Made by a program: the position numbers and the translations under genes. A stretch of DNA of 60,892 nt, filler included, from Hausera hauseri (lineage: Eukaryota), in NCBI GenBank assembly GCA_046269625.1. It is 11 parts of 11 records of this genome, joined end to end, with 100 filler letters (N's around TTAATTAATTAA, not from the genome) between each part and the next. Parts side by side here need not be neighbours in the genome. Positions count along the whole stretch, not along the records: positions 1 to 5,341 come from JBJURY010274952.1; 10 more parts are not named here. One strand, 5' to 3'. Shown piece after piece: positions 1-60,892 of the stretch (its first letter is position 1; each line of letters begins with the position of its first letter). A model generated the notes under the pieces. The model did not search any database. It was not told the DNA's origin and saw only the letters and a program-made list of their open reading frames with translations.

Positions 1-363
1 AATAGTGATATTATTTGTTATTTTCAATGTTTCTGACTCTGATTCTTATTAACTCTAGAAAAATCAGATTAAAACTCGAATCTAACTAATCCAGGAGATC
101 ACACAGGGAACCAACATATTGCGAAAAGAAAAAGCTACCACTATAGTTAGGAGGATTCCCAGACTCACACCACCCCGTCTAGAGACCCCAGGGTGCAGTC
201 TGTTGAAAGTAGTAGCTTTGCAAAGACTGACCAAGACTAATAATAAGAACGGCTAATACAGAGTGATATATTAAGATCCCGCTGACATAACATTATTTGG
301 TGACTGTGTGTCATGGTCTTCTGGTGACATGGCTTTGACGAGATCACGCTGACAAACCTGAAA

Positions 364-383
364 TGGTGCCGTGACCAGGATTC
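364..383 (+). promoter_or_regulatory. Primer-binding site, tRNA-His
   Basis: TGGTGCCGTGACCAGGATTC is the reverse complement of GAATCCTGGTCACGGCA-CCA, the 3' end of invertebrate tRNA-His(GTG) as I recall it. Confidence 0.85.
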
Positions 384-407
384 AAATTCCTGTGACATAA
401 CATTATT

Positions 408-422
408 TGGTGCCGTGACCAG
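408..422 (+). promoter_or_regulatory. Second tRNA-His primer-binding site
   Basis: TGGTGCCGTGACCAG is repeated, preceded by a second copy of TGACA-TAACATTATT. Confidence 0.75.
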
Positions 423-885
423 TTTTAATCCTATGGGGGAAGTTCGAATAGGACTGGCACACCGAAAAGGATTAAGCAAGGGACCTGGAAATTAGAAGCA
501 TTGATACTTCAAGAGAGAAAATTTAGTTATAATAGGGCTGACATACAGGCGTAGGGCATTGAATGTTTTGCAGATTGTTTTACGGATTAGTACACAGGGT
601 GTCACTATATTTTTGTTGCATTTTCACTGATGATAAAATTTATTTCAGGTATATTTGGTATTGGTTGCAGATGAATTACTAACATTGTAGACGCATTTTT
701 TCAGGGTAAGTGCTCGATTGGGCACAGAAGGAAAATTATTGTGTTCTACTAGAGGAAGTTTCACAATTAATAATAAAGATATTGTTTTTTGGTGAAAAGA
801 TTAACATCTAACAGACAGGTGGTATAAATATAATAAGGGAACACACAGCAGAAGAAGCAGGACACCCCACATTCTGCATAAAGTC

Positions 886-3036
886 ATGAACACGTACACC
901 AATCAGTACATGAATGAGAAAAGAAGGGAAGCCCCAAGGTATTTAGGTCAGGCAGCAAGGGGACAGCCAATGAATAGACAAGAGAGGGGTACCGGTAATC
1001 TGGGGGATCATTTTTATTTTGGTCCGCACACGAGTTGGGAGGCAAACGAAACGAAGTTTGTTAGAGTCTCAAGTTGGAGACAAAATGGATACCGTGATAG
1101 AAATTATAGCAATCGAGAGAAGGAAACTGCGAATAATGGTTTAAGTAACTGGAAAACGGTGCGAACCATGAAGGAAGGAATAAGAGGATGGAATAAGAAT
1201 AAAGCACCGGATCATGGTCCTCTGAATTACCAGAGAGATATAATCAAGACCCCAGGCATTAATGGGTCGAGATCCACTGCTGACTCAAGGAAGCGGAAGG
1301 CTGAGTCACCAGTGAGAGCAAAAGGTCCCAGTGGAACTGCGAGGAAGCAACTGATTTTAATCCATTTACAGAGATGCGAGCTTTGCGGTAAAGTTATGAG
1401 AGTAAGGAAACAGTTCGCTAGTGGATCGAACCAGCTCAGGGAGCTAGAACAAATATATTTCGTTGGCCATTGCCAAGCGAATACGAAAACCCCGGAAAGG
1501 AATCCGGCGGAGCGACAGAATGATAGGAAGGGTTCAAACAATAAAAAGACTCTAACGAGGGTCGTGGAGAACCAGACTTCTATTATTAGGAGATTACAGA
1601 ACCAGGTGCGTAATTTACGCGGGTTAATAAATCAGAAGAGATCAGCCAAGGAGCGGGGGTCTCACAAATGGAGAAAAAGGGGAACGAAAGAAGCTCAGAA
1701 AGAGAGTACAGCGCGAGTCACAGGCATTATATGTCAGAGTGGTGGACCCGGCAGACAAACAGGAACCACTGATAACAGTAATTCGCTAGAAGTAACGGAG
1801 ACACAAAGTAGTCAAGGATTGACTACCGAGGCGAGATGTGAGGAGAACGATAAATCGCGGGAAACATTCTACACGATTATGAACGTAGATCCATATCAGA
1901 ACGCAGCAGCCACACTAAGTAATAAAGAAAGACAGAAACGGTCTAAAAGAAAGAAAAATGTTAAGGAGGGCTCAGCAGCCTCAGTTGCTGAAAAACAGGT
2001 TAGTGGGGGAGATAAACAGGAGCGTTGTAACTTAGGGAAACTAATCACTAGTCCTTGCGACTCAAAGACAGATAACAGAGTAGTCGAGTTAATAAAACAG
2101 AATGAAGAATTAGTAAAGGAAGTTAATAGTTTAAAAGAGACAATAGAAAATAAGGAGAAGAAGAATACTATAGAAAGAGAAAAACTGAGGATAGATATCT
2201 CGAAGCAGACAGAAGCGCTTGAGATAAGGAATGAGAGGTTAAAGCAACAAATGGAGGAAATAGAGAAACTGAAGGGTGAAATCGATGAAGAAAAAGACAA
2301 AACCATTATAGACCTGAAGGAACGAAATAAAAGATTGGAAGAAACACAAAAGTCATTAGAAGTAACAATGTCGCAGAGGGAGTTAGTATACGAACAACAA
2401 GGAAGGCGAAATGCACGCTTAGAAGCAGTATGTAGGAATAGAAAAGAAGATGCTAAGAAGATAAACGAAATAAAAAGGGAGGAAGATGAAGGGAAACCAG
2501 CGGAACAGAAAGTTAAAGGAATGGTAGTAAAGGCGGAGAAATCAAAAGTCATAGAACGGAAGACAATTTCAAAAATAAGCCCGATAATTGAAGAAGGAAA
2601 GAAAATGGAGGAAAGAGGGGTAGAAAATAGATTAAGGTGCATAGTAGGAGATAAACGAGTGGAGAAGGTGAGCAATCAATGTGAGGAAAGTGAGGCAACC
2701 CTCACGTGCACTGCCAAGGATAATGAAAAGGCAGAAGAGGAATCGGAGGAAATGGAAACAGGTAGGAACGAAGCCTATAAGCGACCATATGTAGGTGGTA
2801 GTAGTGATGGTGAATTTAAGAATGCGCCGAAGCATTTAAGGCCGTCCGCCATAACGCGGAAACTGGAGGAGAAGGGGAGGAACTCCCTGACAGAAGGGAA
2901 GAACAGGGTAGAGGTAGGACTGAACAATGGAGAGAAAACGCGAACAAAGAAAGAATTAGGCGAAAATCGCTGTGTCAAACGGCGAGGGAGAACGGTGCGA
3001 TATAGGAAGGTAGGACAGAATCTAAGTAAATTTTGA
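886..3036 (+). CDS. 716-aa basic/coiled-coil protein of unknown function inside the LTR element
   Basis: Long uninterrupted ORF with an R/K-rich N-terminus, one CELC motif and a long E/K heptad-like region (about aa 395-530). No recognisable catalytic motif. Confidence 0.6.
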   Translation: MNTYTNQYMNEKRREAPRYLGQAARGQPMNRQERGTGNLGDHFYFGPHTSWEANETKFVRVSSWRQNGYRDRNYSNREKETANNGLSNWKTVRTMKEGIRGWNKNKAPDHGPLNYQRDIIKTPGINGSRSTADSRKRKAESPVRAKGPSGTARKQLILIHLQRCELCGKVMRVRKQFASGSNQLRELEQIYFVGHCQANTKTPERNPAERQNDRKGSNNKKTLTRVVENQTSIIRRLQNQVRNLRGLINQKRSAKERGSHKWRKRGTKEAQKESTARVTGIICQSGGPGRQTGTTDNSNSLEVTETQSSQGLTTEARCEENDKSRETFYTIMNVDPYQNAAATLSNKERQKRSKRKKNVKEGSAASVAEKQVSGGDKQERCNLGKLITSPCDSKTDNRVVELIKQNEELVKEVNSLKETIENKEKKNTIEREKLRIDISKQTEALEIRNERLKQQMEEIEKLKGEIDEEKDKTIIDLKERNKRLEETQKSLEVTMSQRELVYEQQGRRNARLEAVCRNRKEDAKKINEIKREEDEGKPAEQKVKGMVVKAEKSKVIERKTISKISPIIEEGKKMEERGVENRLRCIVGDKRVEKVSNQCEESEATLTCTAKDNEKAEEESEEMETGRNEAYKRPYVGGSSDGEFKNAPKHLRPSAITRKLEEKGRNSLTEGKNRVEVGLNNGEKTRTKKELGENRCVKRRGRTVRYRKVGQNLSKF

Positions 3037-5236
3037 CGAAGCTTATAGAATTTAAGGTAGGGGCGAGAATGAAGGCGGGATTAACCTCAAAAGGTATAGA
3101 ACTTTTGATTAAGTTAATGAGATCCCGGTGTAATAGTTTTAGAATCCCTGTTACTATAAGACATACAGAGGAAAAGGTAAGGTTTAAATCTAGTTAGGAC
3201 CAGATTTTGTTTAGGTCACAGACAGCCTAATACATACCTGAGTAGAGCAGGACTTTCATCTACAGTCAGCACTAATACACAGGCCTGATGCCTGTGCGAC
3301 ACAGTTACACGCACTAACTGTAGATCAGCGGGGAAACACCCAACAAACGAATATAGGTCACATACGTCCCGATTTTTGGGGTATTTGAGGGAGTTCTAAA
3401 AGTAGTGAAACTATCTCAGTAGAACTTTGATTGGAGTGAGACCTAACATATTGTAAGACGTATGTAAAATATTTCGTCTTTTTTTATGAAGTTTTATGTT
3501 TTATGTGTTGTAATGGTAAATAATTTTTCCCATGTGTTGGAAAGGGAAAGATTGTGGGATATACGTGGTGGAGACGTCTTATTAAGGTTATTTATTGTGG
3601 ATGGCGGAGAGAGGACGCCATGGAGCTTCTTTTTTTGGGGGAATTGGCCTGTTGGGGTCAGTCGAACCAGTCTAAAGAGACAGACTATAGGTTTAGTCTT
3701 TTGGGATACAAGGTGTATGTCGTAGACAATCTTGTTGGAAAATCGGAGAAGAGGAGAAAAAGGGAGATGGGCTACCGTGACTCGAGGGTAGTTATGGTAG
3801 CAACATATGTCATTCGCCCTGTTACGGAGGCAGGGGAATTTTGTCTGTTATGGAAGCAGACATAATGCGGAGAATTTTGTTTTGCAGCCAAGTCTGGGAT
3901 ATTATGGGAAGACTTGCGTGGAACATTATGTATTTCATTATGTTAAGGTGATGGGTAACGAACATCACTGAAAAAATATAACATACTATGAGATAATTTG
4001 GTTTGTTCTGGAAGGAATATGCATATTGTTTGATGTGTTATGAATTTGACATGTCCAAGGCCTTATGTAAATATATGTGTATAATTTTTTTATTTTCTTG
4101 ACATTTATTATAATCATATCACTCTATATTGTTTAATTTGTGATTGCCTTAATGTCGTATTTGATTACTTTCTGCAATGACCGATGTTTTTCATTATATG
4201 GGCATGAGTTTTCACATTCCAAATGCTGCATTTTATGTAAATCTTATTGGTTATGAGAATATATCACTTATTTCTTGATGATGTTTCAATGAAAATTTTG
4301 TTATATATTGTTACCAAGAAGAAAACTGACGTTGCAAGACGCAACCATGATACTGAGAATAAATGTAACTTTTGAGACACTTTGACACTTTTCAGAAACA
4401 CATTGTTTCAGGAACACAATATTTGTGCACAGCGAAAGTAGAGCACGCGAGCACGCGGCGGGAACTTACTTGTCCAGAAAAGTCCCGGGTTAGAGCGCTG
4501 GAGGAAAGTTCAGGTATTTGGAAGGGGGGTTTTCTCGATGACACTTAGGTGACAATTATGAGTCACCGACGACCAGACAAGACAAGAGAGGGGGACTTGT
4601 TGGGATTTACCTGGCGGGGAACTCTAAGCCAGGGGGCGTCAACTGAGTGTGAACATGTTGACATTCCGAAAGAGTCTTGATTTTGATTTCAGGTTCCTAG
4701 GTGGAAACTGTGTATGGGATTTGAGAATTCCCTGAGGAGAAATTTGTTGTTGATGTATTGATGGATGAATGTTGGAATTATTTTTCTTTTTCTTGGATAA
4801 TTTAAAATTTTTTAAACTGACCTTGTCTTCATGTAATGAATTTTATTATCATGACTCATGCATTCATGCTTGCATGTTGCTTATTATTTGGTAGTGTGGA
4901 CTTAGTTGATATCAAATGAATACTTTGATGAGTTTGTGCTGACCATTATGATGATTTTTGTTTTCGCACTTTCTTGATGGGAATGTCATTGATTTTGTTT
5001 TGATGTGGTAGTGTAACTTGATGATTCTCTTATGCCAGTTAATGTTTTTTCTTTTCTGTATGATGTCTGAACCTAGAATTATTATATATGGTCGATTGAC
5101 TGTCATTTTTGAAGACAGTGACATTTTAACATGGTTGTTGGTTACAGGGTCCTGTAGGACTTTGATTATAGATTGGGTAAACAGAATCATTGTGTAAAAT
5201 ACTTAGAGACTTTAAGATAACTTAAAGTCTTTTAAC

Positions 5237-5341
5237 AAAGGGAGGTAATGTCATAGGGATTAGGAACCAGCATAGGGACACCTTAGCACATGATGATGAT
5301 GGTTAAAAATAATTATAGACTGATAATGGTGCACATAAACT
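5237..5341 (+). repeat. Polypurine tract and start of 3' LTR (TGTCA at 5249)
   Basis: AAAGGGAGGTAA|TGTCATAGGG. The contig ends shortly afterwards, as expected for an assembly break in an LTR. Confidence 0.65.
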
Positions 5342-10626: not shown

Positions 10627-12740
10627 CATAAATATCCTCTGTATGGATCTGATAGATGAAACTATCAGTATCCATATACATCAGCTGCATGGACTTGAAC
10701 TTGAGGACCATGATGTCATAATGGAATCTGTACATTAGGGTCTTTGACAGATTTAATGCTGCCATACCCCACATATATGGGCTTGTTGAATACTAATGCT
10801 GTTTTCAGCATATGGATGCCTTAACAGCCATAAAGAAATGAGCCGGATCCAAAGCATGGCTCTTCATTGTAACATCCCTGAAACTCTCAAAGACATCAGT
10901 CAGCAGCAGAACGTCCTTCTTGAGACATATGCGCTGTATTCCCCTAATGTTCGGTATTGAAATGCCTGCCAGACGTGCTGAGCATGCTGGTAGTCAGCAT
11001 TACTGATATCGCAATCAGAGAGGATATTGTAAAAGTCCTTCTTGGCCGGCAATGAGGTCTCATCCAGTGTTTCCCAGGAAGTTATATAGTCATAGGGAAA
11101 CACGCTTTTCCTTTTGACTAGATCAAATGCAGTGGGAAAGAACCGCTTTGTCTACATGAGTTCTTCGGAAGGGAGGTTCTTAACCAAACTGTCAAATGAA
11201 GACGGCATGAAACGGAATCTGTCTACGAAGCGAAGCCTGATTTTCCCAACATGCTTGGTAAATGTGATGTATTTTTCCTCGCTATTACGGATCACATCAA
11301 TGTTCCCATTAATGTTGCCCAGTTTCCGAACAATGAAGTGGGAATCACAGCCACTGACATTATGGAACACTACAGGCACATATGTGGATGCTTTGCAACG
11401 TAGATTGCAGTTGTTACATGCCGCGCTCCGATATTTGCCTATAAAATGGCAATGATCCGTGACTTTATAATTATCCATAGTGAATAATTTTGAGAACAAG
11501 TAATATGCTGTTGCCTTGCACCATTCTTCTTCTTGCTGCTTCAGAATGCTCATGGTATACCTATGCTGCTGCATATCTCCAATTCTACGAGCCATATCTT
11601 CAAGTCGTTTCATGAAATGAGCTTCTGCCCCTGGACCCCTGAATAGATGTGGTTCACTGTCCAGTCCTTTGGCATACACGCAATATAATGAAACCTCATT
11701 ATATTGGTATGCCGTTGTGCTGCTATATTGGGGATTAGGACTGCAACCCTGAACTGGGCGCAGAATAGCCTGAAAGTGACAATAGATAACTACTGGGACC
11801 TTGATCTTCTCCTCGAACTCCTTGAATTGAATGTAATCCTCCTTGGAAAAATCTGGCCTGATACAATAATTGCTGTTGCAGTACATTTTGTGCTCTTTCG
11901 GCTTCAATACAGCTACGTCGCCGCTGAAATGTGACAAGCATCGTTTGCATACTTCTATTTCTCCATGATGTTTCGTAATTTGTGATCTGACTATCCGCTC
12001 AGTCTTTGATCCAAACATAATGTTTCTTTTCTCCATCATCTAGTAGGAGCAGATCTCTATAATCTTTCAATTCAGCATAGCATATCTGCAGGGGATAGAA
12101 TTTATCACCCTCATCTAATCCCAAGATATTGATGGACATGTTATTGACTTATCCAAAATTTTTAACTTCATCTATGGATGGAGGGAACTTGATACATTGG
12201 AAGTCATAGTTGTGCTACGCATCCTTATATAGCCAAACTCGTGAAGCATGATTTTGATCCGTTACGAGTTTTGATAGAATGGCATACATGAAGCAAATGT
12301 TGTCGTTATTATAGACATTGACACATGCTTTTTTATTAGCTATCCAATCAAGGAACTGAATATATGAACTGCCCCGCATGGTAGAGTACTTGTGAAAATA
12401 CCCAATCAGTCTCCTGATGGTTGCCAGAGGCCATCCGCTATTCTTATCCTGGCTTTCCCCGGCTTCACGGATCAGCTTCTCGTTCGCCTCTTGCATCCAT
12501 TCTACTATATTGATGTTTTTCTATATGGGTCTATTTTTGGTCTTGAAGGCCATATTAGATTCTTCGCCATCAACATTGATGTATGTGGCCTCCAGTTTCA
12601 TATTGGCCTTAAGGACTTTGAGCTCAGCCATGTTGTCGTGACGAATCCCCTCTGTCTCTTCCTTTGTGTATAAAAGGAAGTCTTGGAGGGTTGTTTGACC
12701 AGTTGCATCAATTACATATCTGCGGTATTTTCTCTTAAAT
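10627..12740 (-). pseudogene. Polinton/Maverick protein-primed DNA polymerase B (EndoVII-containing type), fragmented
   Basis: SGW..GSSYI..KKACVNVYNND.ICFMYAIL; CKRCLSHF; DHCHFIGKYR.A.CNNCNL; VVFHN.SG.DSHFI; FVDRFRFMPSS; FPYDY; KPIY..LSKTLMYRFHY; YMDTDS. Many stops and frameshifts. Confidence 0.92.
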
Positions 12741-15319: not shown

Positions 15320-16083
15320 ATTCCGTGACATTGGGGATGGTAAGCTGTGGTAGTTAATGGTTCGATTTCAAAAATCTTGGTAATTTTGTCGAACAGTTCA
15401 CTCGTGAAGCTTCTTCCTCGATCTGTCAATATTTGTTCGGGTGGTCCGTATCTGCAAATGATTTTCCGGACTACCGCTTCTGCCAAGGTATCGGCCTATT
15501 GGTCTAATAGCGCTATAAGCTCGACGAAATGAGTCAATCGATCTGCACACGTCAGAATGTATTTGTTATTCTTGTGGGTCGTAGGCAACGGTCCTACAAT
15601 ATCCATAGACATTGCTTGCATTGGTCTATCGTGTACGTCGATAGGCTTAAGCTCGGCGACGTAATTTTTTACTTTACTTTGCTTGGTTGCACTCACTTCG
15701 CAAGCATTCACCCAATTTCTCACGTCGATGTAGATGCTTGGCCAATAGTACTTATTTAAAATCCTTTCTAATGTCTTTTTCCATGACATGTGTCCCGCTA
15801 AGTATAAATCGTGTTCGGCCATGATAACTTCCGTTCGTAATCCTTTCGGTATGACGACTAATTTCCGTCCTTTTCGTTCGTAATATAACACATTTTCGCG
15901 GTTCAAATCTCCAGCGACACAGTATTTGTGACCATATCGTCGTAAGTGTTTCCGTAACTGATGACCTTTGGGTGTTACGTTGGTCTCAACGAACTCGATA
16001 ACCTGTTGTATAACCTTGTCTTTCTTCTGTTCATCAGCAATCTTCAATGCCTTATTTAGTATGAGAGAGGCGTATTTGAGCAT
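15320..16083 (-). pseudogene. Gypsy-type DDE integrase (Zn finger and catalytic core), truncated by the contig end
   Basis: HDLYLAGH..YYWP..CEVS (HHCC-like); MDIVGPLP; ICRYGPPEQILTDRG; TTAYHPQCHG. One internal stop. Confidence 0.92.
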
Positions 16084-16199
16084 ATATTAGGATTTCTGTT
16101 CTAGGCGGTATGGTTTCATCCACTGGAATCCACATTTCACCAAATTTTGTGTCTTTCGTGGTTTTAACGCCTTTTATCGGGACAAGTTCTATTAACTTG

Positions 16200-16530
16200 C
16201 CTGCATTGAAATCGATTGCTATATTGGGTAATTGCCTCAATAGGTCACACCCTAACACTACATTATCCTTTAATTGCTCCATTACTGAAAATTCGTGATG
16301 AAAAATCTGTCCCATTATGTGAATTTCTGGTTTCCAACGAAATTTACTTTTCGACGATTGTGCGAAGACTCCAATGCTTCTTTGATCTGTCGTAGGAGGT
16401 GGACATAATTGTTTCCGTAAGAATTGTGGTATCGAATCATATTTTATCAGTGATATTTCAGATCCTGTATCTATTAGTGCATAAACCTCCTAATCTTCCA
16501 ATTGAATCTTTGCGAAGGGCCTGCCTTCGA
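16200..16530 (-). pseudogene. Retropepsin-type aspartic protease
   Basis: GRPFAKIQLED*EVYALIDTGSEISLIK (DTG at 16471-16463) and a downstream VVLGCDLL motif. Confidence 0.88.
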
Positions 16531-17199
16531 TTACTGTACCATAATAGCTTGGTGCTATCTTGGGTTGTCGTATGGTAAACACATTGTAACCATTGATGGT
16601 AACTTCAGTGGTTCCAACTGGCTGCTCGACTAACTGTCTTAACTCTCCAATTGGGTATAGTGCATTATTCGTTTCATTCGCGTTTTCTACTCTCTGGTTT
16701 CTAACTGGCGGCTGAACATCTGAGGTGCGGAGATTTCGTGCTTCATGGCTTCGAGTAAATATCGATTGCGTTTCGTTTGGTTTAGGTATTTTGGGCGAGT
16801 AAATTATACCGTGGTCGTCGACTGCTGATCTATGGTGTGGAGTCGAGGTTTTCTCTGTTTCGTGGATCTTACGCAATATCCCATAGCGTTTTGTTCCTTC
16901 GTAAGGATTTTGTAAACTAAACGGCTTCCGATAGATGTTTGTCTGGCATGAACTCATAGATTGTTTCTCGCAATCTTCATATATAGGCGCCGTTGGCGGC
17001 AATATTGGTAATGGTAGTTTCATAACGGAGTAATTTTTGTTCCTGTTTGGCCTAAAGAGGACGTCTCCTCCCTTAGGCTCCTCATCATCCGAATTATTTC
17101 TTCGTGTCTTAGCTTTTATAAATTTTTGCCTGTAGTCGAATATACCTCTGTTCTGTTTTCGATTATGGTAGTCAACATGTCGCTCTACATTTGTTTTCC

Positions 17200-19050
17200 A
17201 TTTACTCTCTTCATAAGCCTTTAACAATTTGCCGAAGGGAGTAATAATAGCCCTTAAAATTTTGCACGAAAATCCTGTTAAGGTAAATATCTCATATCCG
17301 TTTATGATTGCCTGAATTATAGCTTTTACCAGTTGAATTAAAAAATATATCGCTAGAAATTCTGACGCGGCTTGTCCGAATATTAGGAATCTTCCCAAAA
17401 TTTATGTATAATATTTCTGTAGTTATCTTCTTATAATAGCCAATACCAAGTAATGACTCCCATTTTGCTTGGTAACGCGAGTCCTCTAATATTGTGTGCA
17501 TTGCTCGATTCAGTTTCTGCGTACGCTGACAAGGAAAGGCGAGAAACTGTCGGAATGCCTCTACTTCTTTTTGTCGGTAAATGCCTTTCGCAGCTCTGTC
17601 CTGAAATTTACCATCAGCTATTCCCTTTATTACGTTCGTTCATGTCAACTTGGCAGGTGGCGCGATAATACCACAGTTCAGTAAACTTACCCAGTCGGGC
17701 TCGCTACGTCTGAACATCGGTTTTCCTAAGCTAGTTTTACAGTCTCTCAAGATTGTCGGTTGAGTGGCATTTGCCAACAACACTCTGGTAATTGGCGTTC
17801 CTAATCTCGGTACGTCCTGAAATATCACTGGGAGTTCTTGTATACATCTCTTTTCTTCCACATTAACCGGTATGTCCTTTTTCTTGCACTCATACGTCAA
17901 TAGGACTTCTCCGGTTACTCGTCCAAAAACACATTCTTTCATCGGAATTATTTGTGATGCCAACTTGGGATTTGCGTATATTAGAGGTAGTTTAGTTCTC
18001 ATGATTTCCAAGTCCAATTTACAGTCGTTCGTTATCATCCTGTGACATAACTCTGTTATTCCGGCTTGTCCTTTATAGTAGAAATAGTCGTCTCTCTTTT
18101 TTAGATAATCCTCAATTCGAATGTCTTGAGTCTCCAGTTTAAACGTTCTAGTGTTTATTTCGGTCTCAGCTACAAAGAATGCCTCATAATTTGTGGCATA
18201 CATTATGACATCTGATCTTGTGAGTACATCTTTCTTCACAAACTTTAGTCCATGAGTGTCAGAAATTAGTATAGTAAGTGTTGACTGTTCTGCTACCTCT
18301 TTTCATGTTTTAGAATTAGTTTCTGTACTACTTATGTATCGTTTCCCTGTCATTTCACTGAACTTAAGTTCTTTAATTTTGATAAAATTACAATCGGTCT
18401 TTATTGGAGGTTCCAAAATTACTACAGAACTTCGAAACGGACATGTGCCATCATGAATGTGGCACTTGTGGTTTTCTGTGTAAAGCTTTGTAACGCTATG
18501 GAATATCACCTTTTGTACGCGAATTTCGGTTTCATAAAAGTCTACTACTACGTCATTCGATTCTAGTCCTTTCCCGGTGTCGTATTCAGCACCTTGAAAA
18601 TGCCCGGTGTGCATGTCTAACCTTCCTGCCGCTACTTTATACACTCTGATTATTTTCCCTTGTTGCATTTCTAATTCCATGCCGTCCCATTTTGTTATTC
18701 CCGTTTCTCTAGCTTGCTTACAGTGTTGTCGTTCTAAATTCATCGGAATTGGTGGGGTTGTCGGCTTTATTACTGACTAGCGCCCATGTATTTGTCCACA
18801 ATGGAAAATGCTGCGAAATCGTTTCAACATACATTCTACTCCATCTAATGCAATTAGTTCACGTTGTTGGTATAACACGTAACTTTTTTCTTTTGTTTCT
18901 AATTTGTGTGGTCTCGCGTTTTTACACATTTCCAAGTCCATTAGTGAGTATTTTTGGCCAAGTCTAAATTTGTCACAATTATATACTGTGACTGCACCCA
19001 TTTGTTTTATCAACATCATCATGGTCAAAAAGTTTATTAGCCAATTCGAT
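17200..19050 (-). pseudogene. Chuvirus/Monjiviricetes-like class III fusion glycoprotein (env-like), fragmented
   Basis: Hydrophobic signal-like stretch then VTVYNC..YSLMD..C; C.LKR...FHCG; GEVLLTYEC..C.QELPV..PITRVL..C..PMF; C-terminal TM region FLIFGQAASEFLAIYFLIQLVKAII..ING..GFS. Confidence 0.8.
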
Positions 19051-21304
19051 TCGCTTCCTCTACGATTTCCAGTTACATTTTGTAGCAATTCTCCGAATCT
19101 ATTGCTATAGAAGGAGAATCCACTTTGATGTTCTTCCTCTTTTTCGAATAACTTAGACTAATTCTCTTCTCGGGGTAGCTTTTTGGCAGCCTTTCTTGCC
19201 AAACTAGTAGCCTTGATGAACTCATTTTCCCGATTCGGATTGGTTTTGATGGCCAGGTATAGCAACACTTTTCTCAGTTCCTCTATAGTATTCTCTACCA
19301 TAATTTTCTCGATTATCGTTTCATCACTTAAAGTGCTCTTAGTTGATTTACAGCGGAGGTTCTTCATGGCCTTTGCGGCGTTCGCTATGGCCTTCTCCTT
19401 CTCGTCTAATATATCACTGCTGAGGCTAGAGTAGTTTACTATTCTTATCAAATTTTTTATCAGTTCGTTCAATTCCTCATTATCTGCGCTAAAGGTCGGT
19501 ATGGACATCTGTCACAATTCTCTAATCAAGTCTCCATTATAATCGATTTCCTCTTGTATCTTCCGTGGCCTACCGACAGGACGCTTCTTTTTCGTTACAA
19601 CAGGTATGTTGCTATCAATCGGTACTAAGTTTTTATCATATTGCTCATTATCTTCATCCGTTTATAAATACTCAAAATACACTGCTGCATCTCGGACTCC
19701 TATTATTCGTCCTACCTGTTGTTCTGCTTTGGCCTTTCTTATAGCCTCTTCCTTTGTTTCGTCGATAGCGGTGGTTACCACCAACCGGTTCACTTCATCT
19801 GGGATAATTCCAACTTTTATTAATAGTTCCGTCTCGTCTAGTATTCCTCCTCGGAAATGAAGCCTGTAGTTTAACTCATTAGCGTATCCGTTGTGCTCTA
19901 TCCGCAGTAATACATCCCTTACAAGGGAGCGCGTAATGAACTCTTGTTCCTTCTCGTCCGTCCAATCTAATGCTATTTTTACTGGAATCGTCTCTTCTGC
20001 CTTTGCCTTTAGAATTTTGGCATATTCTTTGAGTAAAACCTTAGGTATTGTACTGAAGATCGTACCTTTACTAGCTAATTTAGTTAGAGTGGGGACTAAC
20101 TGTCTTAATTGAATTTCAGTGAGATTTATTTCAGTCAGCTGAGTTAAGTCCTTCTCGGTTTGTGCTCGGTCCAGAAGCATTTCTACGTTAAACCTTTGTT
20201 CAGGAGAATACATGTCCATTTTGCCTAAGTGTATTGGGGTTTTCGGATTTTTCGCAATCATTGCATATAAATAGGCTTCCCAATTTGGTTCATTTTCATT
20301 ATCTGGCAGTTGATAGTTCTTCAACGGGGTATCGGCTGGCCTGCCCACCACTGTGGGCCACGTAATTGCTCGGAGTTCTTGTAGTTTCTGCTGCATCTGG
20401 ACCATTTTTGTCGTTCGGAAATATCGCCCATTAGCGGACGTTTGGTGGAGCAGTGTTAACAACGAACATAATCCTTCGGGTGAAATTAGACTCTTTTCTT
20501 GGTATTTCGTTTGTTCGGACGTGACATCTCTTTGCCATCTTTGAATGAATTGTGACTTGTCAGCTTTTTCGGCTTCTGTAAGGACGTATTTGTTTTTATA
20601 GACTTCGAGTTCTCTAGTTAGTTCGTCCAACCTTATCGCTCTCTGTTTTATCTTAATGCAAGTTTCTTCGACTTGCTGTATCTGCTGCAACAATTTCCTT
20701 AGTTTCTCATCACTAATTTCTACCATTTCTTCCATCAATAGCGCTAATTCGTACATCTCTTTAATGCTCTTTGAATCCGGATCCATCGCATCTAATAATT
20801 TTTTTACGAACTTGATCTCTTCGAAGTTAAGGTGGCGGTCGTTCTTCATTTTAATTAGTTCGGTATGAAGTCTTTGATCCGTTCCATCTCTCCATTCTTG
20901 AGGACGATGTAAGAACTTAACTGCTTCTTTAACGACTCACCGGTATTCGGGACAAAAGTCCAAAGTTTTAAGATCTCGGATCGAGATTTCTTCGATAGGT
21001 TTGACTGTCAACCAGAGTATTCCATTCAGGCGGACATCTGTTAATCGTGGGTAGAAATCGCAAGTCGCATTTCGCTTTCGCGTGAAGTTTGTTTCCTCAA
21101 TCATTTTATATATATCATTTAGCACCATCATCTCTTCTTTCTTTCCCATAAAGTTTAATTGACGTAGTGCCTCGAATTGGGTTCGGATGTCAACCTCTGC
21201 TTTCATCGTATCTAGGTTTCGGGCGTCTTCTTCCAGCTGCTTCTTAACTGTAGGTTCACTTTCTGGGAATTCCTTTTTCCGGCTGGCCACTAATTCATTC
21301 AGCC
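19051..21304 (-). pseudogene. About 750-aa unknown helical region with an AT-hook, in frame with the glycoprotein
   Basis: ORFs 21290-20937, 20849-19662, 19508-19158 and 19088-18777 share one frame (gaps of 87, 153 and 69 nt) and are separated only by point stops. KRPVGRPRK lies at 19586-19560. Confidence 0.7.
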
Positions 21305-24332: not shown

Positions 24333-27300
24333 ATAACCCCCGGTGGCAAAGCAACGACTAAAGAAGTAAGAAAAGGGAAGATGTGTAGAAACGGTGTATT
24401 TTGTCTAAGTGGGCTTTGTATGAATAAGACGTTGTACCTCTGCAGTGTTAATCTCCTTACTGTTGGTACTAAATGTTACTGATTTGAGAATTTTCAATGT
24501 CTTTGAGTCTAATTGCGGAGAAGACTGAGGTAAAATAATGTCGGATTTCGGCGTTGAAGGTGTTGTGTCGTTCAGTGACGAAAAAGAAACTGGAGGAGTA
24601 GATGTAGGAGAAAAGGAAAAAAAGGTTGGAAGGTTAGTAGAAGAGGAGTTTGGAGTAGGGTCAGATAAAGAAGTAGGTAAAGGGGTCGGAATGGAAAGGG
24701 ATGTATGGGTGTAGGAAGTGAAAAGGTACAAGGCGAAGGAGTCGAAAAAGGGGTCGGAGATTCAATTTTGGGGATGTCGTCTACAAAAAATGCAGGTTTG
24801 ACGTTGTTGATATGCACCGCTAGTTCCTTACCGTCTTTAGAAATAATGGTATTGTAAGAGTGCAATTGGACCAGATTGTAAGGCCCCAAATACCGTGGCT
24901 GAAAACCGCATGGTGTCTGGTTTCTCAGCCAGACAAATTTTGCAAAATATAAATCGTCGGGTAGGTACGTTTTATTGTTATGTATTATTCTGCAGAATGA
25001 ATCTTTACTGACTGAGACAAAATGATTCTGTGCAGTTAGGATAGCTTCGTCTGTAGGTGTATCTTCCAAGGCAGTTAACTCAAATAATGAACGTACAGGC
25101 GCTCCAAATAGGGCTTCCGTAGGTGAACGACCAGTAGAAGTAGAAGAGGTGTTACGCCAACCCAGAAGAACCAACGGAAGAAGAGTAGTCCAACTGCTAT
25201 TGGATTCTGCGAGGATTCTCAGTGACGTTTTTAGTGTTCTGTGGAATCTCTCTAAAAGGCCATTCGATTGGGGGTGATACGGTGATGTGTATATATGACT
25301 GATTCTTAATCGGTTAACGAGAGATTTAAACAAATTGGACTCAAATTGAGTACCTTGGTCCGTAATAATGAATCTAGGGGATCCAAATCTGCTGATCCAA
25401 GTGCGTATGAAAAAGTAGGTTATTGTGTCCGTGTTAGTGCTCCGTAGTGGGACAGTTTTTGGCCAACGTGAGGAACAATCCATCATGGTCAAAATGAACT
25501 GATGACCGCTGTCAGGAGAAAGAGGGCCAACGAGATCAACATAAACAGACTCGAAACGTGATGTGCACATGAAATGATATTGTGGTGGCTTCAATTTTTT
25601 GGTGATTTTAAATTTCTGGCAAGCCACACACTCCTTAACCCACTCTTGCACATCAGAACACATAGTCGGCCATAATACTTGCCAGTGGAGTAAGCGAAAA
25701 GTTGCCTTAGCATCAGGATGGTGCATTGAATGTACACTGTTAAACGCTTGCCGTTGTAAAGGTGGTGCGAGAATTATAGCGGAATGACCTGGTTTGGAAA
25801 TGTCTAAAGCCACGCCGTCAACAAATGTACAAGACTTAAAGGAATTAAGCATGTCCTGAGGTGACTGGTTCTATTGGAGTTGTAGTTGAGAGAATATTGG
25901 TGAAAAATTAAGCGAACCAATCGTCCTATATAGGAAATCGGCCATCAAATTATTAACCCCGTTAATATGTTTAATGTCAAAGTTAAATGTCGACAGATAT
26001 GATATCTGTCTTTCTTGGCGTAAGGAAGGATGTTTCATAGCCATGATGTTTAGCAAGAGCTTGTGATCGGTCTGTATAGTAAAACGGTGAGCTACAAGTA
26101 GGTGGGAGAAATGCTTTAAAGCGCGAACTATGGTCAATAATTCTCGATAGAACGTTGAATATAGAGTTTCAGGGGATGTTAGCTTACGAGAAAAAAATTC
26201 TAGTGGTTGATTTTCTCCTTTGTTTATTTGGTGAAGCACAGCACCTACCGCAGTGGTTGAAGCATCTGTAGTAAGGATGAGTTCCGCATCGGGCTTGGGG
26301 AAAGCGAGAATGTCGACGGTCTTAATTCCTTCGCGTAGCTTATCAAACTTATCAACCAGGTTAGGTTTCCACTGGATTGACTGATGTTTTTTGCCGCCGC
26401 TTAAGTAAGCAAATGGTGCAGTAAGTTCAGAGCAGTACGGCACATACTTGTGAACGAAGTGCAAAGTTCCCAAAAAACTCCTCATTTCTGTTGTTGTTCG
26501 AGGTAATTGTATACTTCTGAGAGCTTCAACACGTTTTATGGCTGAGAAGAATGTCCATTTGCTGAAATGATGTGTCCGAGAAAGTTAGTACGCTTTTGGA
26601 AAAAGCGACATTTCGTAAAATTAATTTGTAAATTGTGGTGGTTAAGTCGTTGAAAAATGGAACGAAAGTGTTCCTCATGCTGTTTGACTGAAGACGAAGC
26701 AATTAAGATATCGTCGATATATGGATGCGCGAAAGTTAAATCCGAGAAGATGGAGTCGATGTGACGCTGGAAAGTCTGCGCAGCGTTGCGTAAACCAAAA
26801 GGCATATAATGTATTCGTACAGGCCGAAAGGTATCGTAACGGCAGTTTTCTCGATGTCCTCGGGTGCGACAGGAATTTGATGATATGCCTTGGCTAAGTC
26901 TATGGTTCAATATACTATAGTGGAATTGAGCCGGTGCAGGATATCCTTAATTAATGGTAAAGGGTATGCATCCATAACAGTTAGAATGTTTAGCTGACGG
27001 TAATCACCGCATGGTCGGAAAGATCCACCTTTTTGGACAACGTGTAAAGGCGAAGACCACGGCGATTTAGAACTACATACAATGCCGGGACGTTCAAGAT
27101 ATAGAAATTCCGCTCCGACAGCTTGCCTACGACGAGGTGACAATGGACGTACCTTTTGACGAATAGGTTTTTGGTGTTGCGTTACGATGTGATGAAAAGT
27201 GCTGTTTGTAGGTGTGAAGGTTTGGTCCTTCTGGATTAAGGAGGGACATGAAGTGTGTATATATTGCCGTAGACTTGCAGGCAATTGCGAGAGATTGGGT

Positions 27301-28249
27301 GATTGTGATGGTGTTGAGTCAATATGTGTAGTGACGAGTGATGTTTGCGAGTTATTGTAATAAAGGGGAATTTGGTGTACGACAGTAGTATTAAAATGGT
27401 GTTTGAAGAGGTAAATTTGTCTAGTGAATGTATTGAACCAACACAATCGTAGTTGTCAAAATCAAAACTCAATTGAATATCGATATTATCGTTAAAAAAT
27501 TTACGAAATGAAAAATGCTTGTTGAAGAGGTTTGGATTGCTTAGAGGATTTTTCAGTATAGGCTTCCGCGGGAAGATCGTTTGCGCCTTAGCTGAGATAC
27601 TATTTATTAGTTCGGTAAGATATCCAGTAGTGTTACGTTTCAGAGATTGTTGTTTGCAATCAACTAAAAGATTATAGTGCGATAAGAAATCCGAACCTAG
27701 GATTGCTGTCCGGACATTAGCAATGGTAAACGTCCAATGAAACGTGGGCTGAAATTTGGTAAGGTGAATGACAATTTAGATGTACCCGAAATGTCTAGCG
27801 GTTCTCTTGAAGCCATAAATGACGATTTAGCTTTGAATGGTGAATTTTGTACAGGGAAAGTGAGTGATAACAAAGAAACCGCAGAGCCTGTGTCAATAAG
27901 GAAATCTATGGATTGAGTTGTTGGTGTGGTTATCGAAGCTTTTAGTGTAAAGACTGTAAAAAGAAGTGTATCGGAAGGTATTATTAGAGAAGTTGCCTTT
28001 GCCAGACTCTGCCGTGAGTACTGGTGGCGAAATTAGTTTTTTTGGATTGGTGAGATTGACCGACTATTACTAGGGGAAATAGAACGTCTGTCGGTAGCAT
28101 GATTAGCGTTGTTCTTATAGTTGTAGCCTGAAAGATATTTCTGAGAGTGGAATCCAAATTTCGCATTTAGACGCAAACGATCTTGTCTGAATGTAAATTT
28201 GGAGTGTAATATCTACACCCTAAACAGCATTTATTAGCTTTATTATGAA
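24333..28249 (-). mobile_element. Ty3/Gypsy LTR retrotransposon, decayed pol (PR-RT-RH-IN)
   Basis: FLIDTGSAVS (about 27900); SPWSSPLHVV..CGDYRQLN; [21 protein letters not shown]; TTDAS; DLVGPL..TDQGTQFES..YHPQSNG.LERFHRTLK. A G-run CCGGGGGTTA|TGT at about 24341-24333 is the likely PPT/LTR start. Confidence 0.95.
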
Positions 28250-30105: not shown

Positions 30106-33100
30106 TTAAATCTGCCCTTGGGTAATCAGTTGTTTGTGCAACTCTCTGCATTGAATTGCAGCTTTTCTTGTAGACTTTCCTCTTGGATTATCTTGACTGA
30201 CTGCAACCTCTTCATTCTTATTTTCTAATTGCAACCCTTTATGCAATAGTATAATATCAGATGGATGTCTGATTATGATCTCTCCATTTGCTTTCTTAAT
30301 GGTAACAGAAACCGCTTCCTGCAAATCATTTCTCATAACATCTGTCACGACACCCATATTATAGTTTAAGGGCTTACAAAACTTTTCTTTAATAGCAATT
30401 ATATCATTCACATCTAAATCTACATATGGTTTTGTTTTATACCTATCTTTTCTATTTACTGACATATATTGCAAATTCTCCACAAATTCATGGCGATAGA
30501 GTTCATTTAAATTATTTTTTACATTTCTATAATTTTTAAACAAGTTATATAGCTTTTCCTGATCTTTTTCTAAAGTCCAATCAGGGTCATTCAAATGATC
30601 TCTATCCTCATGCATGTGTGGTGATATATCTAGACTATTAACCTCATACCCTTTTAATAATACCTCTGGTGTTATAGCAAAGGGAACACTTGGATCTACC
30701 TCTGGGTCTCTTAATAAAGCTCTAAAGGCTAAAGGTCTTTTGTTTACTAAGGAAGAAGCTTCCTTAACAAGTAATAAGAATTCATCATATTCTAAAACAT
30801 TACTTCCCAGAGAGACATTTATAATATTTTTAACCTGCTTAACTAATGATTCAACAATACCACCTAGAAAGCTTGCTCTTCCAGGGTAAGGGTGAAATTT
30901 CAAAGATTCAATATTTTTTAATTTAAACCAATTTTTTACTTCTATTTCATTCATGAAGTTTTGAACAATGTTCATAGAACTAACTATAGAACTTCCCATA
31001 TCACTTAAAACACGTGATGGAATTCCAAACTCAAAAACATGCATTTGAAATGCCATGAGAAAGGATTTGTTATTTAAACTCTTACACAAAACAAGATTTA
31101 CTGCTCTTGTAAACATACATGTTAATATTAATAAATAAACTTTCTCATTTTCATTATTAATTTTAATATTAAAAGGCCCTACATGATCAATAAAAATTTC
31201 TTGAAAGGGTTTCATTTTAGGATTTACTCTGTATTCCTTATAGCTATTCTGATTTGTTTTTATGGCCCTACTATACATTAATTTACACTTCATGCAATGT
31301 TGTATATTCTTTTTTATGACTGAATATAAATTAGGAATATAAAATTCTCTTCTTACACTTGCAAGCATCTTATATATACCTGCATGTTTTAATTTCATAT
31401 GGTGCTCTTTCACTATGATCTGAGTTAAGCAATGGTTTTTTCCTAATAGAATTGGATTTCTTTGATTGAAATCAGCATTTAGTTTGGCCATTTTACTCTT
31501 TACTCTAATAATCCCATCCCCATCTAAAATTAAATTTAGTTGTGTTATTAAATGTGTTTCTTTATTTTTTCTTGGGTTTACTAGATAATTATAAGTATCA
31601 GGGAAATCTTCTATTTGGGCTTGCCTAATAATAGTATTACAACTCTCTCTATATGAACATTCAGAATTTACATCAAAATTTTCAAACAAACTTACATTTT
31701 TACTTTTAATTTTGATTTTTAAATTATGAATAAACTTTCTTACAAAGTGTGAAGTTTTACATATTTTTTCTAATGTTGAAAACCTATCCAATTTGAATAG
31801 TGCAACATTTGGGGAAATTGTTTGTATATTTAGGGTATAAATATTATAATTATGACCATTTTCTGAATGTAATGGATTGGGAATTTTAACTTGAATAATA
31901 TCACTTAAATTTTTTAGATCTGGACCCTCTAAATAATTACTTTTTTTCAAAACATTATAAGAAACACATCTAGTAACACAATCACTTGGATTTACTAATC
32001 CATTTATATGATGAAAAGTTACTTCATGCTTCTCACACATGCTAACTATAGAATTTAAATTATTATTTATAAGGGATCCTTTCCTTTCAATTTTATCAAA
32101 CCTTTCACATTTGTTTATTATCCAATTTAAACTGATAGTGGAATCAGTGTATAAATGCAGACTTTCTATTTTCACAGGGCAGAATGCCTTAGTTAAAACT
32201 TCATACATTTCCAGCATGCATTCCACTCCATATCTCACCCCTGTTAATTCTAAAATTGGAATTGTTCTACCGCTATATTTATCTGAGACAACTCTATTTT
32301 TAGCACATAAAAAATGTAATTTATCTGTCTGAGTATCTAATAGATATAATACATTACCATAAAATGATTTACTGGCATCAGTAAAGCATAGTATCTTATA
32401 AATACTTCCATAATGTCCTATATATCTTCTAATTTTTGGAAAAGTGCTTTTATTATATTGCTTACAAATCTTAGAGTATTCTCTTAATATTTTTGGACTT
32501 AATTTACTGTCCCATGTTATTTTTTTATCCTTCTGCAAGCTGTGTAAGAACAGTTTAGCTCTGTTTCTACCAGGCAGGCCTATATTCAAAGGATCAAAGA
32601 TAGAGTTGACTTCTGATAAAATTTTACGGAGAGTATTTGCTTCTGGATTTAATTTATTAATTTTATTATATAACATATCATTTCTATAATCCCATACCAT
32701 TCCTAAAAGTTTGGTTTCCCCAGTTAGGTCATTATTAGTCCCATTAGGGTATACCTCACTATTCATGAATTGTTGGAATTGGGGGGAGTTACTATAAAAC
32801 TGTTGAAGGTTAAATCTATATGAACTAAATATTGCAGTAGCTTTATGAAAGGCTAAAAGAATGTCACTCTCAAACCCTGACGAATAACCTATATTATCCA
32901 TGTATGACAGGTTATACATACACTTTCGGAGATGATTCTCAAAGTCATCACAAATATCAACATGCAACATTAAAATTATATAGATAGACATCATGAGAAT
33001 AAATGGACTACATCGTAATCCAAATGGCAGGCGCATTAATTTATACGCTACAACATCAAAATTATTTTCTTCTATATTTTTATACCATAAAAAATACAGT

Positions 33101-33768
33101 TTTTCAGAGTCTTCCTCCGGTATTCTTATTTGATGGTAAGCTTTCTCTATATCATAGACCAACAGAAATTTATTTAATCTTAATAGAGTCAATGCTATAT
33201 CTAATTTTTGATTTAGATTGGGTCCTGGGATACTAATATTATTGTGGCTTAAGTATTTTTTCTCAGATTTGTCACACAAATTTGACAAATAAACTATTCT
33301 GCATTTAGTCGTCTCGACATTATCTCTAAATACTGCATTATGTGCTATAAATGATACATTTTTATTATACTTTAAGGTATTTATATTTTCTACGGGTTGA
33401 ATAATACCACTTCTAATTTGTTCCCTCAACACTTGGTCGTATAACTCCAGTTTGTCCCTTTCTTTGCTAAATTTTCTTTTTATAGATTTTAGTACATTAT
33501 AAGCTAAATAATAATTATTTGGCAATAAATGTATTAATTTTGGGTTGAAGAGACATGGCATTATTAACCTACCATTTTCTCCTACTTGAGTATTCTGCAG
33601 TATATGTACAATAAGCTCTTTGTCTATCTCAGAAAAGGGGTCTGGAGTCCTAAACTCATCTATGTTTAAAACCTCATGCATTATTTTCTTTAGTTTATAG
33701 TTAGGATCATTTAATTCATCTAAATTTGGATGTAATTCACTGGGGTCAACAATATTTGAGGAAAACAA
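30106..33768 (-). CDS. pol: BEL/Pao Pol (RT-RNase H-integrase), open for 1220 aa
   Basis: GPNL..DIEKAYHQI; RLPFGLRCSPF; YMDN; FDPL; FTDASK..LCAKNR..TIPILEL; HAG..CMKC; DHVGP; SDMG; GGIVESLVKQVK..NKRPL. Confidence 0.95.
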   Translation of the reverse strand: MFSSNIVDPSELHPNLDELNDPNYKLKKIMHEVLNIDEFRTPDPFSEIDKELIVHILQNTQVGENGRLIMPCLFNPKLIHLLPNNYYLAYNVLKSIKRKFSKERDKLELYDQVLREQIRSGIIQPVENINTLKYNKNVSFIAHNAVFRDNVETTKCRIVYLSNLCDKSEKKYLSHNNISIPGPNLNQKLDIALTLLRLNKFLLVYDIEKAYHQIRIPEEDSEKLYFLWYKNIEENNFDVVAYKLMRLPFGLRCSPFILMMSIYIILMLHVDICDDFENHLRKCMYNLSYMDNIGYSSGFESDILLAFHKATAIFSSYRFNLQQFYSNSPQFQQFMNSEVYPNGTNNDLTGETKLLGMVWDYRNDMLYNKINKLNPEANTLRKILSEVNSIFDPLNIGLPGRNRAKLFLHSLQKDKKITWDSKLSPKILREYSKICKQYNKSTFPKIRRYIGHYGSIYKILCFTDASKSFYGNVLYLLDTQTDKLHFLCAKNRVVSDKYSGRTIPILELTGVRYGVECMLEMYEVLTKAFCPVKIESLHLYTDSTISLNWIINKCERFDKIERKGSLINNNLNSIVSMCEKHEVTFHHINGLVNPSDCVTRCVSYNVLKKSNYLEGPDLKNLSDIIQVKIPNPLHSENGHNYNIYTLNIQTISPNVALFKLDRFSTLEKICKTSHFVRKFIHNLKIKIKSKNVSLFENFDVNSECSYRESCNTIIRQAQIEDFPDTYNYLVNPRKNKETHLITQLNLILDGDGIIRVKSKMAKLNADFNQRNPILLGKNHCLTQIIVKEHHMKLKHAGIYKMLASVRREFYIPNLYSVIKKNIQHCMKCKLMYSRAIKTNQNSYKEYRVNPKMKPFQEIFIDHVGPFNIKINNENEKVYLLILTCMFTRAVNLVLCKSLNNKSFLMAFQMHVFEFGIPSRVLSDMGSSIVSSMNIVQNFMNEIEVKNWFKLKNIESLKFHPYPGRASFLGGIVESLVKQVKNIINVSLGSNVLEYDEFLLLVKEASSLVNKRPLAFRALLRDPEVDPSVPFAITPEVLLKGYEVNSLDISPHMHEDRDHLNDPDWTLEKDQEKLYNLFKNYRNVKNNLNELYRHEFVENLQYMSVNRKDRYKTKPYVDLDVNDIIAIKEKFCKPLNYNMGVVTDVMRNDLQEAVSVTIKKANGEIIIRHPSDIILLHKGLQLENKNEEVAVSQDNPRGKSTRKAAIQCRELHKQLITQGQI

Positions 33769-33789
33769 ACTATGGTGGTGAAGTAGTTG

Positions 33790-35904: not shown

Positions 35905-36155
35905 TACTCGAGTGTATGAAAGAAAACTTTATACATATATCTATATACCTTGCTATCTATCTAACTTTTATTATATTTGAATATAACATATACCTAGATA
36001 AGTTATTATTTCAAAAAAAAAAAAATTTTTCACCAAAAAAAAAAAAATTTTCACATAGAAAAAATTTCTTTAAAACAGGATATGTGTATTTCATATATAT
36101 ATTTTTATATTGGAAGATTCAGAACATCAATAGAAAAGACTTAATAGGGGCAGAT

Positions 36156-43100: not shown

Positions 43101-43146
43101 CATAATGACAGGAAATAATGAAGGCATGCCCATCAGAGGGTTCACA

Positions 43147-43293
43147 ATTAATGACAGAAAGAGAACTAAATAAAGATGTATTTACAATCAAAAGAAATGT
43201 ATATAATCAATTATTGTTCAATGTTAATAAGGAAATGTATATAATCAATTATTGTTCAATGTTAATAATGTAATATCATTGTAAATTCGCATC
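43147..43293 (+). repeat. 147-bp direct repeat, copy 1 (contains an internal 38-bp tandem duplication)
   Basis: Nearly identical to 45412-45558. AAATGTATATAATCAATTATTGTTCAATGTTAATAA occurs twice. Confidence 0.92.
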
Positions 43294-45070: not shown

Positions 45071-45411
45071 TAAAATTTCGCCTTTAGAGTCTAATATAGC
45101 GATATCAATAATGGTTTGGTTGATGATTGTTAAATTAGGTTGGGTAGTAACGTAATTATAGGCTACAAAGGTGAATAGGGGTTCTAAATCTGACAGAGAT
45201 AATCCTTCTGGTGTGGAGGAGTATTCGTTTACTGGTTCTAGTAGCTTAGGTATATGAATTTATTGATCGTAGTCCTCATTACGGGTGTATATGAGTTTTG
45301 GTTAGTTTATTTCCACAGCATATATACAATATTTGAAGAAGTAACAGTAAAAGATAACAATTCGATAGGGGGAATTGTAATAATCACACTAAAATTGTTG
45401 AGTGGTTTATG

Positions 45412-45558
45412 ATTAATGACAGGAAGAGAACTAAATAAAGATGTATTTACAATCAAAAGAAATGTATATAATCAATTATTGTTCAATGTTAATAATGAAA
45501 TGTATATAATCAATTATTGTTCAATGTTAATAATGTAATATCATTGTAAATTCGCATC
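45412..45558 (+). repeat. 147-bp direct repeat, copy 2, possibly inside an LTR starting at 45376
   Basis: Matches 43147-43293. Preceded by AGGGGGAAT|TGTAAT (PPT-like tract plus TG). Confidence 0.85.
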
Positions 45559-46624: not shown

Positions 46625-46717
46625 CTAAATAATACTAATACAACCTTTTCTCACATGATTTGTTTATAATTATGTTACACACATATAAATAGCTATAGTA
46701 TAAATGCTGTTGCCATA

Positions 46718-60627: not shown

Positions 60628-60892
60628 TGTTTAAAAAAGACAAACGTAAACTAAAATTGCATCTCTATTTATATCAAAGGTTTGTTTTCATTAAGTAAAA
60701 TAGATATTTAGTTTGTGAGTATTGTCTCATATCACAATGATACAAATTACTTCCATGTTACTGAAGTCATTCATAATAAATGTGTACAATTTCCATTATA
60801 GCACATTTACATTCTGAACATTGGTGGGTTACTTTTGTGGTGGTAGGACACATTTGACAAACAACGAGATGGCCGCACATTAAGAATACCGT

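Follow-up and report, generated by a model that had tools for sequence, protein, structure and literature searches.

LTR elements are drawn with one primer-binding site (PBS), and the mechanism by which they change their primer tRNA is stated to be unknown (PMC10886601). HIV-1 revertants forced to use other primers carry multiple PBSs for different tRNAs: in these multiple- and dual-PBS variants, tandem primer sites lie behind U5 and arise in reverse transcription on primer change (PMC1084362). A paper on HIV-1 with dual Gly/His PBSs (PMID 9400600) stands among the references of PMC11181671. HIV-1 MAL and subtype A have a natural, inherited duplication of the primer site, a 23-nt insertion just downstream of the PBS (PMC3185550, PMC11181671). 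A PBS that is double or bipartite gives Ty3 and Drosophila gypsy more than one tRNA-binding site per genome; of these, gypsy cDNA synthesis needs only the 5' one (PMC1635307). In cqgypsy_1, a Culex element of the Osvaldo lineage, a 26-nt LTR end is duplicated around tRNA-derived sequence at the PBS (PMC3286476). Each of these resembles, in the respect just named, the leader described here, in which LTR end and primer site are repeated in four short modules.

The window, that is the whole stretch of Hausera hauseri DNA that was analysed (1-60892; 60,892 nt), consists of 11 separate pieces of 4-8 kb. They are joined by linkers of 100 nt each (44 N, a 12-letter stop linker and 44 N), and adjoining pieces are not genome neighbours. 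The array lies within piece 1 (1-5341), which begins within one LTR and finishes within the other. We read this piece as a non-autonomous, pol-less LTR element, on the basis of its termini, primer site, purine run and multi-copy cover in sequencing run X1, of which 250 contigs align to it at several identity levels, as divergent copies. All its features lie on the plus strand. The 3' part of the 5' LTR (1-287, truncated by the piece start) ends ...CCCGCTGACA; the start of the 3' LTR (5249-5341, truncated by the piece end) follows 3 nt behind a candidate polypurine tract, a short run of 9 purines at 5237-5245. An open frame of 743 codons (805-3036) occupies the usual gag position, with a basic N-part and a coiled-coil-like C-part, and is matched by an 856-nt X1 contig with 0 differences. 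The long stretch behind it (3037-5236) has no detectable pol or env remains: read in six frames, with X at stops, it gives no Pfam family at E<=0.1, and there is no Rfam match. The frame has no relative in Pfam, in the 5.8-billion set or in the 1.84-billion representatives (the atlas best is 0.80), nor among 43 candidate viral contigs, so the lineage is not nameable from the protein. It stands as an orphan gene aboard a young non-autonomous element. A second purine run at 4584-4595, with TGTTGGG soon after, looks like a polypurine tract before an LTR start (4570-4610), and an X1 loose end ahead of 4507 bears a similar purine module.

The termini are of the TG...CA type with short inverted repeats: TGTCA starts at 5249, TGACA ends at 287, and the inverted match extends to 10 of 16 letters. 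The boundary at 287, which the sequence-only reading had assumed, agrees with this match and with two X3 contigs (records 21 and 22) whose fit begins exactly at 5249, with other letters ahead. It agrees as well with the summed contig depth, a weak measure, which drops from ~200 to ~60 across 290-310. Over 308-352 the depth falls from 65 to 31, an internal level, compared with an LTR level of ~200; in X1 it is raised at both piece ends, and the start of the 3' LTR is the highest bin. The two partial LTRs do not overlap, which makes an LTR-to-LTR alignment impossible and leaves the boundary with indirect support. The step at 290-310 and the internal level behind it hint that the LTRs end at 287, and hence that priming occurs at 298; they weakly suggest that an inner site rarely determines where the LTR ends.

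Other pieces of the window hold further retroelement remains and unrelated features. At 15320-21304 (minus strand), a region with a Monjiviricetes-type fusion glycoprotein (three Pfam matches, split by stops) lies upstream of protease and integrase zinc-binding domains, an env-before-pol order; GAG-ENV-POL elements are mentioned in PMC13524379. Piece 5 contains a broken Ty3/gypsy-type pol (24572-27775, minus) and piece 6 a BEL/Pao element with Peptidase A17 and DUF1759 (30106-35928, minus), neither with a junction stack nearby. An open frame at 11152-12039 (minus) matches organellar or viral DNA polymerase B and endonuclease VII weakly, below curated cut-offs, and another in piece 9 (46670-47500, plus) has a TBP domain. 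The end of piece 9 (49144-50576) is ~80% alike, in inverted orientation, to the end of piece 11 (59175-60807). Piece 8 has 155-nt direct repeats (43139-43293 and 45404-45558), 97% alike and 2.3 kb apart, possibly a small LTR-type element.

Behind the LTR end of piece 1, the letters and coordinates reported earlier for an array at 270-422 are all as claimed. The motif TG[AT]CA followed after 0-11 nt by TGG occurs 5 times in this stretch, against a maximum of 4 and a mean of 0.32 in 10,000 dinucleotide shuffles; its TGACA-only version occurs 4 times, a count reached by 1 of the 10,000 shuffles. Both strands of the window, with 63 motifs in total, contain no other cluster of at least 3 within 150 nt. 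The array is real, beyond chance.

A 10-nt spacer (288-297) leads from the LTR end to the first primer site. Module 1 (298-329) combines this LTR-proximal site, which is Arg-UCG-like or a bulged His site, with a diverged LTR-end-like tail that ends in TGACA. Module 2 (330-354), with no spacer ahead, has a decayed TGG site without a tRNA match; its tail equals the present LTR end in 13 of 14 letters over the stretch first claimed and in 13 of 16 over a longer one. A diverged 9-nt spacer (355-363) precedes module 3 (364-397), a 20-nt tRNA-His site with an LTR-end-like tail that again ends in TGACA; one X1 contig has a 9-nt spacer ending TTATT at the same place. A 10-nt spacer (398-407), identical to 288-297, then leads to module 4 (408-436), a 15-nt tRNA-His site whose tail lacks TGACA. 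Likeness to the LTR end at 287 is 13/16 for the tail ending at 354, 11/16 at 397, 9/16 at 329 and 6/16 at 313. In shuffles with the ends held fixed, modules 3 and 4, which share 15 straight letters, are alike at p=0.0002, modules 1 and 3 at only p=0.049, and module 2 resembles the others at p=0.3-0.5. Module 1 is recognized by its tRNA pairing and by a homologous site in loose ends of X4 and X1.

The joints between modules follow a pattern. Two of the three internal TGACA ends (354 and 397) keep a spacer of 9-10 nt ahead of TGG, one of them identical to the spacer at the true end; at 329|330, CA is joined directly to TGG. The well-kept internal tails (340-354, 382-397 and two contig tails) all start after GAT, the last letters of the 18-nt His site. 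The true LTR end reads AAGAT-CCCGCTGACA, and its GAT lies 11-13 nt ahead of the LTR end.

The sequence-only reading had divided the array into five units, with TGTCA at 309-313 as an LTR terminus. An X4 loose end contains a site equal to 299-313 in 13 of 15 letters (by eye), with TCTCA replacing TGTCA and then CAGGAT, a primer-site tail, and a shorter X1 loose end shows the same 299-313-like site running on to CAGGAT. This continuation makes 309-313 a part of the first primer site instead of an LTR end, and it is unlikely that 314 is a separate primer site. Four modules appear to fit better than five, a parse that is weak from the window alone; the X4 contig is at trace depth (2.3) and may not be an independent source. 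At the RNA level, 262-440 folds no better than its shuffles (z 0.67), and among five shorter stretches only 355-425 reached z -2.0. Rfam gives sub-threshold matches only on the window, which contains no tRNA gene.

We compared the sites with tRNA ends from supplement 1 (second sheet) of PMC13524379 and from Fig. S2 of PMC10886601, which may not be those of the host; five of the ~190 12-mers of the former and one 21-mer were scored, and the remaining 12-mers were looked through by eye. Site 364-383 pairs 20/20 with the Aplysia tRNA-His 3' end and site 408-422 pairs with it over 15 nt; the His site of the array is the mollusc form of that figure (PMC10886601 Fig. S2). The two His sites called earlier are upheld, and with them, given the shuffles, the core of the proposal: an LTR-element leader with repeated LTR-end and primer-site junctions. 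Three further TGG units had been left without a tRNA. One of them, site 298, has no more than 5 consecutive nt paired with tRNA-His, compared with 11 nt for two Arg-UCG ends (PMC13524379). Against the better Arg-UCG end it forms 9 Watson-Crick and 2 G.U pairs and ranks first of the 86 TGG sites in the piece; against the second it ranks second of 86. Against the better of these Arg 12-mers, the His sites score only 1.1 kcal/mol below it. The His sites of bivalve Helenus elements contain bulges of one letter (PMC10886601 Fig. S2), so that site 298 may be either a tRNA-Arg(UCG) site or a bulged His site. Sites 314 and 330 indeed fit none of the five tRNA ends scored; by eye, the best among the other 12-mers of PMC13524379 is 7 contiguous letters for 314 (Tyr) and, for 330, a stretch of 7 nt, two G.U pairs included, with an unassigned 12-mer. 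Sites 364 and 408 are the same site, and the His and Arg types differ by about three changes. What had been described as an array of alternative primer sites would offer at most two primer types, not five, with no sign that inner sites are used. One tRNA-Leu end tabulated in PMC13524379 has, just ahead of its CCA, the same nine letters as the end of the LTR (279-287); this likeness is probably due to chance, and contig variants differ there.

Contigs of the sequencing runs show how the leader varies. The best run holds 0.72 of the words of piece 1, and there are no RNA runs among the sequencing-run matches listed. Runs X2-X4 hold less than 0.1 of the words, and their true pieces have a depth of 2-3, below that of chance-match contigs of the same runs; on account of this low depth we do not count them as separate species. 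Nineteen X1 contigs lie on 236-500, 8 of them among the matches listed, as are 9 of the 13 loose ends over three runs. X1 records 4 and 5 match 264-309 with 2 and 0 differences. X1 record 6 (107 nt) follows 283-339 with 4 differences and continues with another TGACA-ending tail, another 9-nt spacer and TGGTG: where the window has a tail close to the present LTR end (340-354), this copy has an older-looking one. A second X1 contig bears an internal-type tail and a different spacer ahead of the last His site, the tail of a third agrees in 11 of 12 letters with the start of the LTR in inverted orientation, and further listed contigs have a 298-type site in place of the last His site of the window (408). 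No listed contig covers 362-397, and module 3 as written is known from piece 1 alone. Among copies, differences gather in tails, spacers and the last site, and the body can be free of them: turnover is faster in the leader than in the rest of the element. The copy-to-copy variation that had been predicted is present for these parts; in module number, no gain or loss, and no joint, was seen among the listed contigs.

Similar stacks exist in unrelated sequence. In metagenome contigs, a search for pairs of His motifs spaced by 12-42 nt found 10 loci, none with a tRNA gene. Judged by eye, eight of them (L001-L008) are GC-rich minisatellites or repeats in coding sequence that lack an 18-nt site, and these were rejected. 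The other two have 3 modules 34 nt apart (L009; 1185-1290, plus strand) and 6 modules 30-31 nt apart (L010; about 180-370, minus strand). In both, every module begins with an 18-nt His-type site and, after a few letters, repeats the 10-12 letters found ahead of the first site. This first site has stayed intact and later sites have changed, a decay away from the LTR that the piece 1 array does not share. From the junction alone, both would be LTR elements, and the site of L009, with its single T spacer, is that of fish elements (PMC10886601). The end ahead of the first site of L009 is a short hairpin. Two patterns searched in viral contigs gave 0 matches. LTR-end and primer-site stacks are recurrent, with the same anatomy in unrelated sequence.

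We propose that the four-fold stack of LTR end, spacer and PBS likely results from repeated slips of a borrowed reverse transcriptase, and that the first site (298) is the one that likely primes (probability about 0.55). A copy of the PBS is made by plus-strand copying of the tRNA over 18 nt, with A58 as a partial stop (PMC1785368). Plus-strand strong-stop DNA would end in an 18-nt copy of the primer tRNA, here ending in GAT. At strand transfer, or in a switch between two packaged RNAs, this end would land on the GAT of the LTR, one module too far upstream. The last ~10 LTR letters, the spacer and the old site would then be copied again, so that a new site arises next to the LTR and displaces the old one downstream. 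Such slips could also swap a tail or a site between modules and between sister copies. The first site would set the LTR end, and the inner modules would be tolerated relics or spare tRNA-binding sites, with no function needed.

Several observations lead to this reading. The spacer behind CA is itself copied (288-297 equals 398-407), that is, the junction of RNA or unprocessed cDNA, which points to a polymerase as the copier. Reverse transcriptases switch templates in vitro on a likeness of 2 nt (PMC3035444); from this, the borders at the 18-nt site, the recurrence of GAT and the multi-PBS HIV-1, we infer repeated mis-landed strand transfers. The slip model requires that the 10-nt spacer be trimmed at integration. 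Against it, the best His site is the third and not the first, the reverse of L009 and L010, which calls for a primer change or for a bulged first site. In L009 the LTR has no match to the letters between site and tail, so the likeness at GAT does not hold for all stacks. No intermediate, and no gain or loss of a module, has appeared among the listed contigs; modules 1 and 2 are barely like the others within the window (p=0.05 to 0.5); and short likeness is also used by DNA-level slippage.

The alternative that survives best, which we still hold to be unlikely, is a leader that works with several primers or records a primer switch. His would be the former primer and the Arg-like 298 the present one, the inner sites would still prime, with the inner TGACA ends giving integrable ends, and the array would be kept for a wider choice of primers or helpers. 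It draws on the 11-nt pairing of 298 with two Arg-UCG 12-mers, the best of 86 for one (PMC13524379); the His sites come within 1.1 kcal/mol against the same 12-mer, and 298 is second of 86 for the other. That 298 recurs in X1 contigs (0 and 2 differences over 264-309) shows that it is no private decay, and a 298-type site stands at the place of the window's last His site in other copies; bulged His sites are common in the bivalve elements of PMC10886601, so 298 may itself be His. An LTR-end-like TGACA lies at the right distance for all inner sites but one, while sites 314 and 330 fit nothing tested. Contigs give no hint of lengthened LTRs, and 1-287 contains no TGG. In favour of this alternative, HIV-1 stably keeping two PBSs is cited in PMC11181671, and it would speak to the primer change for which PMC10886601 states no known mechanism.

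Ordinary tandem duplication of the junction at the DNA level, by replication slippage or unequal exchange in one genomic copy, with later decay and passive spread, is rather improbable. It would account for the 15 straight letters of modules 3 and 4, for the near-equality of 278-302 and 388-412 and for the lack of any observed change in module number among listed contigs; leaders of non-autonomous elements often contain tandem repeats (PMC3286476). It leaves unexplained why the same junction is repeated in three unrelated elements with borders at the end of the 18-nt site, and why one tail has been swapped for the present LTR end.

An integrase that repeatedly puts LTR-end and primer fragments into the leader, in the manner of CRISPR spacer acquisition, was the mechanism first suggested, and we now regard it as very improbable. 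Integrase cleaves behind CA and links the processed end straight to the target, where a short duplication is made; a spacer that is kept marks the copy of an uncut junction. The joint at 329|330, with CA straight onto TGG, is compatible with such an event, and the tRNA dimer of cqgypsy_1, flanked by its 26-nt LTR-end duplication, is read as integrase-made by the authors of PMC3286476. In piece 1, a target-site duplication of 4-6 nt is found in 0 of 10 module definitions, spacers behind CA are retained at 354 and 397, and the element has no integrase remains in Pfam by six-frame reading. The units lack both hallmarks of a CRISPR array, an integrase signature per unit and a constant repeat with unique spacers: likeness of the tails to the LTR end ranges from 9 to 13 of 16 letters, and two sites are identical over 15 nt. 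Far from being unrelated captures, the sites are copies of one or two tRNA ends.

That the assembly strung variant leaders of several copies into one contig is hardly credible: the piece does start and end inside LTRs, like short-read contigs, and the best run has only 0.72 of its words, but the 107-nt X1 contig runs from 283 through 298, 314, 330, tail, spacer and TGGTG, which shows that at least the first part of the stack is no artefact, and another X1 contig has an internal-type tail ahead of the last His site.

If the modules are relics of reverse-transcriptase slips, errors of strand transfer and changes of primer can be counted from them at little cost. A broader proposal, which we consider doubtful, is a recurrent, undescribed growth of polar stacks of attachment end and primer site at the time of reverse transcription, caught here in a switch from His to Arg with inner modules still priming and integrating; it would supply the missing mechanism of primer tRNA change in LTR elements, with a history readable in the leader. 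If the modules are only tolerated duplications, they are a structural curiosity. Such stacks can also mislead the calling of LTR ends and PBSs, and they may offer extra targets for 3' tRNA fragments.

In literature other than subscription journals and Repbase entries, no description of stacked LTR-end and PBS modules in retrotransposons was found. Tandem-array TRIMs and Cassandra arrays repeat LTR-PBS junctions as whole LTRs and internal regions with a polypurine tract. The modules of piece 1, in contrast, are 25-44 nt long, have neither a polypurine tract nor an LTR start, and repeat only ~10-16 LTR letters. The second site of Ty3 and gypsy, located at the 3' end, binds a different region of the same tRNA (PMC1635307). 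Unlike the array, cqgypsy_1 is a single element in which two complete tRNA copies stand head to head, with no stack of short modules (PMC3286476). The oyster element Gypsy-39_CGi and the bivalve Helenus elements have the same His site, with TTATT ahead (in Gypsy-39_CGi-I), spacers of up to ~10 nt and, in the non-autonomous partners, bulged His sites (PMC10886601 Fig. S2). In piece 1, TTATT forms the last five letters of 288-297, and TTATT with a His site behind it stands at 403-422; site 298, the first, is imperfect as a His site. The bivalve elements have one site each in that figure, and Helenus elements are TRIMs with a tRNA-like LTR and no open frame: the likeness to piece 1 concerns the junction. 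The MAL insertion is one partial PBS copy for the same tRNA, and a repeated LTR end with spacer is not reported for it in the text available from PMC3185550 and PMC11181671. The nearest precedent would be the multi-PBS revertants of HIV-1; those are laboratory revertants of engineered viruses, mostly transient (PMC1084362), whereas piece 1 carries a natural four-module array in a retrotransposon family.
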